Source: a virus (taxonomy: Duplodnaviria > Heunggongvirae > Uroviricota > Caudoviricetes). Taken from it: a stretch of 28,943 nt of DNA. Position 1 is the stretch's first letter; every line of letters begins with the position of its first letter. The position numbers and the translations under genes were made by a program. The notes below the pieces were generated by a model. The model was not told where the DNA came from and did no database searches. It was given only the letters and a program-made list of their open reading frames with translations. The stretch covers positions 1-28,943 of IMG/VR virus record IMGVR_UViG_3300043172_000799, one strand, 5' to 3'. Shown here in pieces: positions 479-3,625 of the stretch.

Positions 479-482
479 AGTA

Positions 483-608
483 TGGAGATGACGGCATCGA
501 AGCCGTGTCCGAACTACATGTACAAGATTTTAATCTACAGGAACTTTCGGTGCTAGTGCATTTACGTCATTCCTAATTACTATAATCCGTCGAAACCTTT
601 ACATCCCC
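483..608 (-). ncRNA. ssrA: miniature tmRNA (ssrA-like), 126 nt
   Basis: Minus strand begins GGGGATGTAAAGGTTTCGAC and ends GGACACGGCTTCGATGCCGTCATCTCCA. Acceptor stem GGGGAUG/CAUCUCC has the G3.U wobble and discriminator A. D-loop has no stem and ends GGUUUCGAC. P2a is GGAUUAUA/UGUAGUUC. T-arm is ACGGC-UUCGAU-GCCGU (6-nt loop). No full CCA tail is encoded after the discriminator. Confidence 0.85.
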
Positions 609-613
609 TAAAA

Positions 614-1152
614 ATCAGAGGGTCTATTTTAGATTGAACCCCCTGCTAAAGCAATCCTGACATGTTTTTAAAGTGGATTTTAAGTTCCCACTACTATGGA
701 TGCCATAGCACAGACAGAACATTATTTAATGTGCTTTCCATCCTTGTTCACACATGCCAAATATTTAACGTGGATTCAATGGCTTCCAGCAAGCAAGACT
801 ATTCTTTCCTCCCCTCCAAACTTTAACGTATTTACTCAGGGTCTTATACGAGTGAGCAGAACGTGCTTTTCTTCCAAACAGTAGCAGAGGTCATCCCGTA
901 GGATCGTCACTAGAACTGCGCAGTTCATTTACAGGGTTATGGTACAACGACCTAAAGATGGTTTAATGTTCCCTGACCACCTTTCCTTAATCCACAGCCA
1001 CACTCTGGGTGCCTACTCTTAGTAGCTTCCTCTCGACTAACTGTTTCATGTCTTAAAGCAATTGGCGTGGTATTCTCGACGCCCCGTTTTACTTCAGCAC
1101 AACATATGTGAATGTGCCCCAACTATCGACCACAGTTGGCTCTCGCTCTGAT
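614..1152 (-). ncRNA. large structured non-coding RNA (~540 nt), family unassigned; size and context like ROOL/GOLLD
   Basis: No credible ORF. Ends pair (AUCAGAG 1152-1146 with CUCUGAU 620-614). More than 10 local and long-range helices, G.U pairs favouring the minus strand, and a c(UACG)g tetraloop at 893-904. Confidence 0.75.
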
Positions 1153-1178: not shown

Positions 1179-1184
1179 ATTATA
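1179..1184 (-). promoter_or_regulatory. candidate -10 box for the RNA cassette
   Basis: Perfect TATAAT about 27 nt upstream of the large RNA; no good -35 box at 17 nt spacing. Confidence 0.35.
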
Positions 1185-1412
1185 CTATTTCATCTCTACA
1201 ACCATATTAGGTATAGCTTCTGGTACTCTTCTTACATCAAATGTCTCTAGGTTCCCAACATCCTTTGCATAGAAGATCCCTCTCCAAAAACTCTCTGCGA
1301 ATTTTATTGACTTTAATAATTTCATTATTGTTCATTATTAAATCAATCACATCTTTTCTTTCCATTCCCCAGAGTCTCCTTCAAAAATCTCAATCATTCT
1401 TTCTTTTGTCAT
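1185..1412 (-). pseudogene. fragmented small gene(s) between the recombinase and the RNA cassette
   Basis: ATG at 1412 overlaps the recombinase stop (ATGA) and gives only MTKERMIEIFEGDSGEWKEKM*. Protein-like text continues in shifted frames (MERKDVIDLIMNNNEIIKV..., then FWRGIFYAKDVGNLETFDVRRVPEAIPNMVVEMK*). Confidence 0.35.
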
Positions 1413-2344
1413 ACTATTACCTCCAATCCTCTCAAATATTTTTCAGTCACTGTGACACTTGCATGGTGAAGTGCCTTTGACACAAGATAGATATCTTTTG
1501 TCTTACTATATAGCTTGCAAGCAAACATATGACGATAGTCATGCGGTGTATATTTATGCATGATCTCTCTATTTTTATACAAAATCCCAATAGTTCTTCT
1601 GAAGGACGTTTGTACACTATTGCCATTTAAATCTGGCAGTAATTCAGAGTTTTCTGCTATGAAAGCATCTCCTTCCACATTAACTGAATAGAACTTCCCC
1701 TTGCTCATTGAACTTAAGGTTTTACCATCATATTTAATAAACTCTTTATTAAAGAACCCAACCCTCACTGCGTATTTAGTCATAATGTGAATTGCTAGTT
1801 TCATTTTTTTATCAGCTTTGGAATCCGAATTATACATTTCTAGTATATTTTCAATCTCTTTCTCAGAAGGCAAATGCTTAATTTCTGGAACTATTTTAGT
1901 ATTCTTTATTCTAACTCCTAGGAATGGATTTCGTTCAACCCATTCATGTCTACAAAGCATAGAGTAAAATGAAGAAAGTACTGACAGTATGAGCTTTGCC
2001 TTCCCACTACTATAATTACTTAAGACAGAATATTTATACAGATCTACAGTTTTAAAGTTTACATCCAGAAGTGATTTCCCATCTAGATATGTAATGAAAC
2101 TGTTTAGATACAAACTATACATGCGTTTAGTATCTTTGGCTTTGCCCTCAAGGAAGAAATTGATGTTATCCTGTAAATCAAATTCTGACTTTTGTACTTC
2201 AGATTTAACCTGAGTTTTATACTGATCCATTTTTACAGAGAGCAATACATGCTTCAACTGCTCTTCAGATAATTCCCTGAATGACTCCGGCATAGAACTT
2301 AAAATATCTACAACTGTATTCTCTGTATTCATTATAGCTGTCAT
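1409..2344 (-). CDS. tyrosine recombinase/integrase (XerC/D-like)
   Basis: Catalytic motifs YAVRVG (R), PHDYRH (HxxR), LHHASVTVTEKY (H...Y); SAM-like domain ending NPF. Confidence 0.92.
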   Translation of the reverse strand: MTAIMNTENTVVDILSSMPESFRELSEEQLKHVLLSVKMDQYKTQVKSEVQKSEFDLQDNINFFLEGKAKDTKRMYSLYLNSFITYLDGKSLLDVNFKTVDLYKYSVLSNYSSGKAKLILSVLSSFYSMLCRHEWVERNPFLGVRIKNTKIVPEIKHLPSEKEIENILEMYNSDSKADKKMKLAIHIMTKYAVRVGFFNKEFIKYDGKTLSSMSKGKFYSVNVEGDAFIAENSELLPDLNGNSVQTSFRRTIGILYKNREIMHKYTPHDYRHMFACKLYSKTKDIYLVSKALHHASVTVTEKYLRGLEVIV

Positions 2345-3304: not shown

Positions 3305-3552
3305 TATATGTCTCTCCTCATATCATAGTAATAATCTGAAAACTCCTGTAGTCGAATGTTACCACAAACTGAGCAGTATTCATTAGAGGAAAGACCATCA
3401 CTAGTATCAAACTCAAGCATAAGAAGATCTCCTTTCTTACTTTCTTTTTGACAGATGGGGCAATTGCCTTTAAAGTTGCCTGTATTTGTGTGCCATGATT
3501 GATGCCCAAAGTGGCTTATGTTATCTTTAGTAAGTGGTTGATGCTCTCTCAT
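3304..3552 (-). CDS. hypothetical zinc-finger protein
   Basis: CPIC...CSVC; AGGAG RBS; follows a promoter. Confidence 0.75.
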   Translation of the reverse strand: MREHQPLTKDNISHFGHQSWHTNTGNFKGNCPICQKESKKGDLLMLEFDTSDGLSSNEYCSVCGNIRLQEFSDYYYDMRRDI

Positions 3553-3582
3553 TGTAAACTCCTCTAATTTTAGTATAATGTA

Positions 3583-3611
3583 AGAATAACAGATTATCTT
3601 CAGTTTGTCAA
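3583..3611 (-). promoter_or_regulatory. sigma70 promoter
   Basis: TTGACA-17 nt-TATTCT with extended -10 TG. Confidence 0.75.
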
Positions 3612-3625
3612 GAACTTTTTATCAT

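Follow-up and report, generated by a model that had tools for sequence, protein, structure and literature searches.

A candidate large non-coding RNA adjoining a minimal tmRNA in the genome of a marine-sediment phage

Results

The candidate RNA and its neighbours

The window, the stretch of 28,943 nt of DNA that was analysed, is the start of a virus record of 168,384 nt and 34% GC, which originates from marine sediment; the phage genome is circular via a 133-nt terminal overlap. The phage encodes terminase, portal, DNA polymerase, helicases, ribonucleotide reductase, RecA and RNA ligase, and no SmpB, reverse transcriptase or TROVE gene was found in its genome. Its closest cultured relatives are remote; the nearest cultured portal and polymerase are less than 28% identical to those of the phage, and the proteins that we looked up near the candidate are all singletons at 90% identity. 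The ORF of the terminase large subunit (L008 1943-4639) is 898 aa long; its profile coverage is split and it has an endonuclease match, a layout that suggests an inserted domain or an intein.

On the minus strand, the tyrosine recombinase gene is followed by two short ORFs, the candidate RNA, the mini-tmRNA, ORF 438-10 and two small ORFs (Table 1). Across the circular join, tRNA-Trp lies ~1 kb from the tmRNA and is followed by a 477-nt gap and then by tRNA-Leu, tRNA-Gln and tRNA-Met. No promoter of the phage consensus was found immediately upstream of the candidate, and the closest full TTGACA promoter upstream is at 2395-2367. Genome-wide, we noted more than 20 near-consensus promoters of the TTGACA-17-TG.TATAAT type, mostly on the minus strand and several with a common spacer sequence. 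The sequencing runs listed as holders of the locus include no RNA holder.

Table 1. Features at the candidate locus (window coordinates)
Feature	Position	Strand	Basis
Candidate large non-coding RNA, 539 nt, GC 43.6%	614..1152	-	ORF-free, codon score, no Rfam match
5' domain, three hairpins (1139-1119, 1118-1096, 1095-1054)	1054..1139	-	pair probabilities 0.89-1.0, z -1.45
Core domain closed by 1046-1041/881-876 and 1033-1029/890-886	876..1052	-	probabilities 0.95, 0.91
7-bp end-closing helix, 5' arm (partner 620-614)	1146..1152	-	p~0.02 post hoc; ensemble probability 0.56
Putative kissing loop of hairpin 984-954, 8 bp to 724-717	964..971	-	post hoc p~0.03
Perfect 14-nt palindrome, single copy in genome	913..926	either	p~0.02 post hoc
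9-bp 3'-terminal hairpin 645-637/624-616, then AUUUUU	616..645	-	MFE structure, -11.4 kcal/mol
TATAAT -10-like hexamer, without -35 match	1179..1184	-	promoter scan
Shine-Dalgarno AAAGGAGG	1172-1165	-	read from sequence
Putative 11-codon micro-ORF, TTG start, overlaps candidate 5' end	1158-1123	-	read from sequence
Mini-tmRNA, 129 nt, 5 nt downstream of candidate	480..608	-	RF00023, 52.9 bits
Putative tag frame ALAPKVPVD in mini-tmRNA	559-530	-	sequence
Tyrosine recombinase gene	1409..2344	-	Pfam PF00589; upstream neighbour only, unlinked to RNA in relatives

The candidate differs from the genome in composition, with a GC content in the top 0.1% of the genome's 539-nt windows and the highest among the long ORF-free gaps of the phage, and above that of most coding DNA. 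Stop codons number 8-14 in each of the six frames (9-14 per minus frame), codon scores lie close to zero or below it in every frame and are negative in the minus frames, and the six-frame translations have no PHROG match and no tblastn or blastp match. Similarly, no tRNA-like remnants were found in the candidate, and the phage genome contains no antisense targets of it above chance.

Comparison with known RNA families

The locus had been described in a first-pass annotation as a large, unassigned non-coding element in a phage RNA-gene context. The lack of coding signal, the lack of an Rfam match and the adjoining tmRNA support this description, while folding at the level of shuffled sequence (see below) speaks against it. 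That no family could be assigned is confirmed by cmscan against Rfam, in which positions 400-1300 gave only the tmRNA and noise at E≤10. The ROOL model (RF03087; threshold 99.1 bits) has no match at E≤10 in the region or the genome, while the known copy in pMP118 scores 130 bits as a positive control, and pairwise alignment of the candidate with ROOL scores at shuffle level (z -0.7). The conserved 3' domain of GOLLD (RF02032) has no match at E≤10 in the genome, in a search in which no control genome reached the cut-off, and OLE (RF01071) gives no Rfam match to the candidate, with OLE controls scoring up to 560 bits.

RNase P and group II signatures had been reported as absent, and both model searches and inspection agree. 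RF00010 and RF00373 (RNase P) and RF00028 (group I) have no match at E≤10 in the phage genome, and RF00011 has none at the locus, its sole match in the phage genome (E 1.2) being elsewhere; controls score with these models. We found no P4 partner of an RNase P core in the candidate. For a group I intron, no downstream exon was seen and no host gene is interrupted; for group II introns and HYERs, no family is among the E≤10 matches, and the GUGYG start, domain V and 3' AY are absent by inspection. Csr/Rsm families have no Rfam match at the locus, and the candidate contains 14 GGA motifs compared to 10.5 expected (P = 0.09), mostly outside loops. With no ROOL, GOLLD, RNase P or group I model match at the locus, we conclude that the candidate is not a member of these families.

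The resemblance to ROOL and GOLLD noted in the first-pass annotation thus holds for context and size and fails for the family models. ROOL and GOLLD RNAs occur near phage tRNA islands and assemble via kissing loops and palindromic pairing (PMC12286853, PMC12990946); ROOL RNAs average 581 nt and the L. salivarius RNA is 543 nt (PMC5737381, PMC12286853). The candidate shares with ROOL its size, ends joined by a helix, a modest MFE z, putative loop-loop contacts and a location in a phage or prophage near tRNAs, here tRNA-Trp and the mini-tmRNA. However, no element of the ROOL consensus was recognised in it, neither the long P1 nor the AGUGAAGA/GACA hairpin nor the GUAGCC...GGUGAAA elements, and its internal repeats are absent from ROOL. 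It resembles GOLLD in its phage tRNA-island context and possible self-assembly, but is shorter than typical GOLLD RNAs (often >800 nt). OLE, at about 600 nt, is of similar length but is chromosomal in Bacillota and folds with z of -6 to -8.6. Bacterial RNase P RNA (RF00010, RF00011) and ORF-less group IIC introns (HYERs, PMC12990946) are comparable in their end-closing helix or size, but the candidate is without their catalytic-core motifs.

Folding of the candidate against chance

The 16 arm pairs listed in the first-pass annotation are all complementary at the positions given, the two helices with G.U pairs can form on the minus strand alone, as its strand preference had implied, and the cUACGg hairpin is present at 904-893. 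Complementarity of the listed arms is nevertheless weak evidence, since helices are no more numerous than in shuffles: we counted 23, 6 and 1 Watson-Crick helices of at least 6, 7 and 8 bp, compared to shuffle means of 25.6, 6.5 and 1.6. The folding energy likewise fell at shuffle level, one of two outcomes that had been named as counting against an RNA, with an MFE z of -0.22 for the minus strand (+0.27 in a second run) and +0.29 for the plus strand. The same test gave z of only -1.95 for ROOL, a real RNA, which tempers this outcome, and z of -2.85 for a phage tmRNA and -6.1 to -8.6 for OLE, and the candidate folds more weakly than every known-RNA control. No sub-domain has a z below -1.6, and the middle part (875-753) is at +1.5.

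Particular helices are well defined in the ensemble. Pair probabilities are 1.0 for 1139-1119, 0.99 for 1083-1064, 0.95 for the long helix 1046-1041/881-876, 0.89 for 1118-1096 (whose loop contains an 8-nt palindrome) and 0.85 for 1025-1013, and two further well-defined helices, 1095-1089/1060-1054 and 1033-1029/890-886 (0.91), had not been listed before. All well-defined helices (0.85-1.0) are confined to the 5' half of the candidate. Probabilities are moderate for 984-954 (0.65), the UUCG-type hairpin at 904-893 (0.62) and the end-closing helix; the first two lie, with hairpin 1025-1013, in the core domain. Three listed helices (953-949/892-888, 743-739/702-698 and 735-730/712-707) fall below 0.04, outcompeted by alternatives. 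Helix 1052-1047/664-659 stacks directly on 1046-1041/881-876. Nested folding cannot score crossing pairs, and the listed pseudoknots are putative; the intricate multi-pseudoknotted fold is a proposal, as yet unproven.

Ends, loops, palindrome and repeats

Four sequence features of the candidate bear on its possible architecture, all of them modest, post hoc signals; for three of these, the end closure, loop-loop match and palindrome (Table 1), the p-values are uncorrected. The end-closure test looked for 7 bp of pairing between the initial 45 nt and the final 15 nt of the intergenic interval (P = 0.02), both of whose boundaries have an independent origin, one in the upstream stop and the other in the start of the tmRNA. 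The loop-loop match, 971-964/724-717, is the longest Watson-Crick helix in the region, and the stem framing the partner loop 724-717 has an ensemble probability of 0.035. The same loop-loop test was silent for ROOL and tmRNA, and thus such a match is not a validated marker. The palindrome is possibly a dimer contact or a DNA site.

The fourth feature is a set of internal direct repeats, four degenerate 20-nt copies (15/20 identical) where 0.26 would be expected; none of 300 shuffles reached four, with P between 0.007 and 0.2 under other window settings. This level is reached in 1 of 44 GC-rich genome windows and in none of the control RNAs (ROOL, OLE, tmRNA), and the phage genome has no further copies of the repeat motifs outside the candidate. 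The repeats build hairpins that resemble one another in two pairs (1117-1098 and 734-715; 973-954 and 689-670), and they offer arm 995-989 a choice between two identical partners, 776-770 and 679-673. They may have arisen by internal duplication or may be contact modules that are repeated, and the loop-loop match may itself be a by-product of them.

The 3'-terminal hairpin at 645-616 competes with the end-closing helix 1152-1146/620-614. The terminator scan made no call there (the hairpin loop is 12 nt and the loop limit of the scan is 8).

Relatives of the candidate

The gathering of homologues by blastn and nhmmer, proposed in the first-pass annotation, yielded no full-length relative. We found no homologue by blastn of the whole candidate and its halves against 50,697 phage records, by blastn against 72,556 plasmids, or by blastn in ~1,200 sampled genomes of three phyla; nor did nhmmer --max find one in any fetched locus, including the whole 146-kb phage G001. 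Exact candidate patterns matched nothing in genome contigs; three matches in viral contigs proved to be chance matches inside coding DNA, and the blast matches to Lactococcus phages are ordinary full-length tmRNA. Three loci (L005-L007) are 100% identical copies.

Walking from the neighbouring genes (recombinase, ORF 438-10, portal and SNF2 helicase) led to related phages but not to the RNA. One related phage, carried by run SRR14923482, has a recombinase at 49% and a helicase at 63%. Four syntenic relatives (L044, L046, L047, L048) have ORFs and no candidate RNA downstream of the recombinase. These phages retain the block of RNase H, a small ORF and the recombinase, and two of them also retain helicase genes further on; they are without the whole RNA island, which argues that the candidate belongs to a swappable RNA module.

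The sole variants are 151-nt contigs of depth 2-3 from two other marine studies, which cover only the 3' third of the candidate, with 622-819 at 90-99% identity and the RNA-tmRNA junction spanned by 493-641. The latter contig, from run X3, keeps the junction; those of run X2 cover 672-819 and 622-692, and the 622-692 piece diverges afterwards. The X2 change at 709 breaks the pair 733-709 in the stem framing the kissing loop, with none listed at 733; the depth there is 2 and the change may be an error. In the alternative hairpin 710-692, the change at 705 breaks a pair and that at 709 improves another. The change at 661 falls in helix 1052-1047/664-659, the opposite arm of which is outside coverage, and those at 728 and 756 are outside the listed helices. 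The fragments thus show that the stretch is real and common to related phages, and lend no support to the fold.

The neighbouring mini-tmRNA

The mini-tmRNA scores above the value that we set for a tmRNA (at least 47 bits) and has the G3.U of the acceptor stem, the D-loop region and the T-arm. It has no pseudoknot ring, since only ~40 nt stand where the model has 284 positions, and its tag frame ends in Val-Asp and not in a degron. The mycobacteriophage DS6A has a tmRNA of the tRNA-like domain only (PMC4131195, PMC11915505). The mini-tmRNA is similarly reduced to little beyond this domain, but differs in that a resume-like GCA, followed by a short open frame, has been kept. An (AC)n run (481-464, minus strand) directly follows its 3' end; the X3 relative has no such run but retains the ribosome-binding region downstream.

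In viral and metagenome contigs, most of them phage-like, a generic pattern picked out 14 other elements that have both tmRNA ends and a length of 120-145 nt (L014 6320-6449; L017-L029); ARAGORN misses them. Six of the 14 (L014, L019, L022, L023, L024 and L027) share an internal motif with the mini-tmRNA of the window, and a 9-codon frame ending in Val-Asp is found in four of the seven mini-tmRNAs aligned (that of the window and six relatives). None of the 14 has the candidate large RNA upstream, and nhmmer did not find it in phage G001, which lies behind L014; the two elements thus need not occur as a tandem cassette. Of five further matches, in genome contigs, some are assembly-gap artefacts: L058 and L059 were rejected as such, since the assembled genomes contain runs of N, and L056, which is like L059 without Ns, may be another. 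Contig L029 carries both a full-length tmRNA (2528-2834) and a mini-tmRNA (3505-3622) with identical 3' end and flank, which suggests, from the sequences, an origin by duplication and internal deletion, or a misassembly.

Other RNA elements were noted in the same genomes. G001 has 23 tRNAs, one with a CUA anticodon, as well as two tRNA-like elements with greatly enlarged anticodon arms (L014 7320-7426, 107 nt; L014 7683-7798, 116 nt) and tandem repeats like hairpins, of the GGAAGTTCC...CTTCCCG type (L014 8790-9190), that precede a large ORF. Lactococcus phage AM1 (L013 2505-2853, 3171-3249) contains a skipping-rope RNA and also a full-length tmRNA and two tRNAs that its annotation omits.

Discussion

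Few bacterial or phage RNAs of at least 500 nt are known, most of them ribozymes or, according to recent work on ROOL and GOLLD, RNA-only cages. We consider that 614-1152 is probably a real, functional RNA gene, and a credible orphan candidate that may represent a new class of large phage RNA. This reading is favoured by the raised GC, the lack of coding signal, the adjoining tmRNA and the tRNAs ~1 kb on; by the end closure, loop-loop match and palindrome (each p~0.02-0.03) and the internal repeats; and by the marine fragments that carry the 3' part of the RNA and the RNA-tmRNA junction. It is weakened by a folding z of about zero, the want of a full-length homologue, the X2 pair break at 709, p-values that are post hoc and uncorrected, and the lack of a phage-consensus promoter directly upstream; chance-level folding and the lack of covariation support hold back its standing.

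The best explanation is a discrete, stable phage RNA of ~540 nt, of an undescribed class, which would be expressed from the minus strand of an RNA-gene island. It would be transcribed with the island, from the TTGACA promoter or from the -10-only site. Cleavage by RNase P at the tmRNA 5' end is an established step of tmRNA maturation, and such a cut by the host enzyme would free the 3' end of the candidate. The 7-bp helix would join and protect the RNA ends. By analogy with ROOL and GOLLD, the RNA may serve as an abundant non-catalytic scaffold or decoy, whose copies would self-assemble during infection via loop-loop and palindromic contacts; it may work like either RNA without belonging to either family. 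We put forward this full mechanism, from co-transcription and maturation to scaffold or decoy function and assembly, tentatively, as somewhat doubtful in its entirety. Still more speculative, and unlikely as a whole, is a cage class apart from ROOL and GOLLD, in which a ~540-nt RNA of duplicated hairpin modules self-assembles via its loops and 14-nt palindrome and is co-matured with a mini-tmRNA, which may give stalled proteins a new peptide tag other than a degron. If true, a further class of large RNA adjoining a minimal tmRNA would be a ready target for cryo-EM, and would link large RNAs to phage control of host translation; the candidate class rests on one full-length sequence at present.

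The stretch could instead be a spacer in the RNA island, with little fixed structure and made of several small RNA modules or decayed RNA genes in a row or of a long precursor leader, which we regard as possible although rather unlikely. In favour of a spacer are the z of about zero overall, the z of 875-753 and the restriction of well-defined helices to the 5' half; the X2 contig that matches 622-692 and then continues in unlike sequence suggests modular exchange, and the gap between tRNA-Trp and tRNA-Leu is a second ORF-free, GC-rich stretch with a z of -0.83. Against a spacer are the end closure at independently set boundaries, the direct stacking of the long-range helix 1052-1047/664-659 on 1046-1041/881-876 and the lack of tRNA-like remnants.

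Two other readings are each improbable. In one, the stretch is a cis-regulatory leader (attenuator) of the mini-tmRNA, in which the 645-616 hairpin with its U5 tract would terminate transcription, the end-closing helix would prevent this, and a ribosome on the micro-ORF would tip the balance. Indeed, hairpin and helix are mutually exclusive and of similar weight, and a strong Shine-Dalgarno and the micro-ORF overlap the 5' arm; but the U tract is just 5 nt, the loop is long and not called by the scan, the arms are 530 nt apart, and related mini-tmRNAs occur without such a leader. In the other, equally improbable, the stretch is not an RNA, but a decayed protein gene or a DNA element with binding or recombination sites for the adjacent recombinase. 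The Shine-Dalgarno and TTG start would suit the former, the palindrome and repeats can be read equally as DNA, and z is about zero. Yet the stops and negative codon scores of the minus frames, the lack of PHROG, tblastn and blastp matches of the six translations and a GC above most coding DNA argue against a gene, while the repeat motifs are confined to the candidate and relatives retain the recombinase without the stretch.

A highly diverged ribozyme serving the tRNA island (RNase P-like, or an ORF-less group I or II intron) is very unlikely: size and end closure are compatible, and a GGAGGGGAGGAAAG stretch at 817-804 recalls RNase P CR-I (as a lead only), but the models are unmatched where their controls score, and neither P4 partner, GUGYG start, domain V, interrupted host gene nor reverse transcriptase was found. 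Least probable is a sponge RNA titrating CsrA/RsmA, for which the GGA motifs, one of them in a hairpin loop, and one 10/12 match (P = 0.11) to the CsrA consensus could be cited, since the GGA excess is within chance, most GGAs are outside loops and no Csr/Rsm family matches.

The functional-RNA reading of 614-1152 may have a parallel nearby. The gap between tRNA-Trp and tRNA-Leu (L010 15652-15176, minus strand; genome ~167650-167175) has a GC content of 42%, no Rfam match and no phage blast match, and is possibly another orphan RNA.
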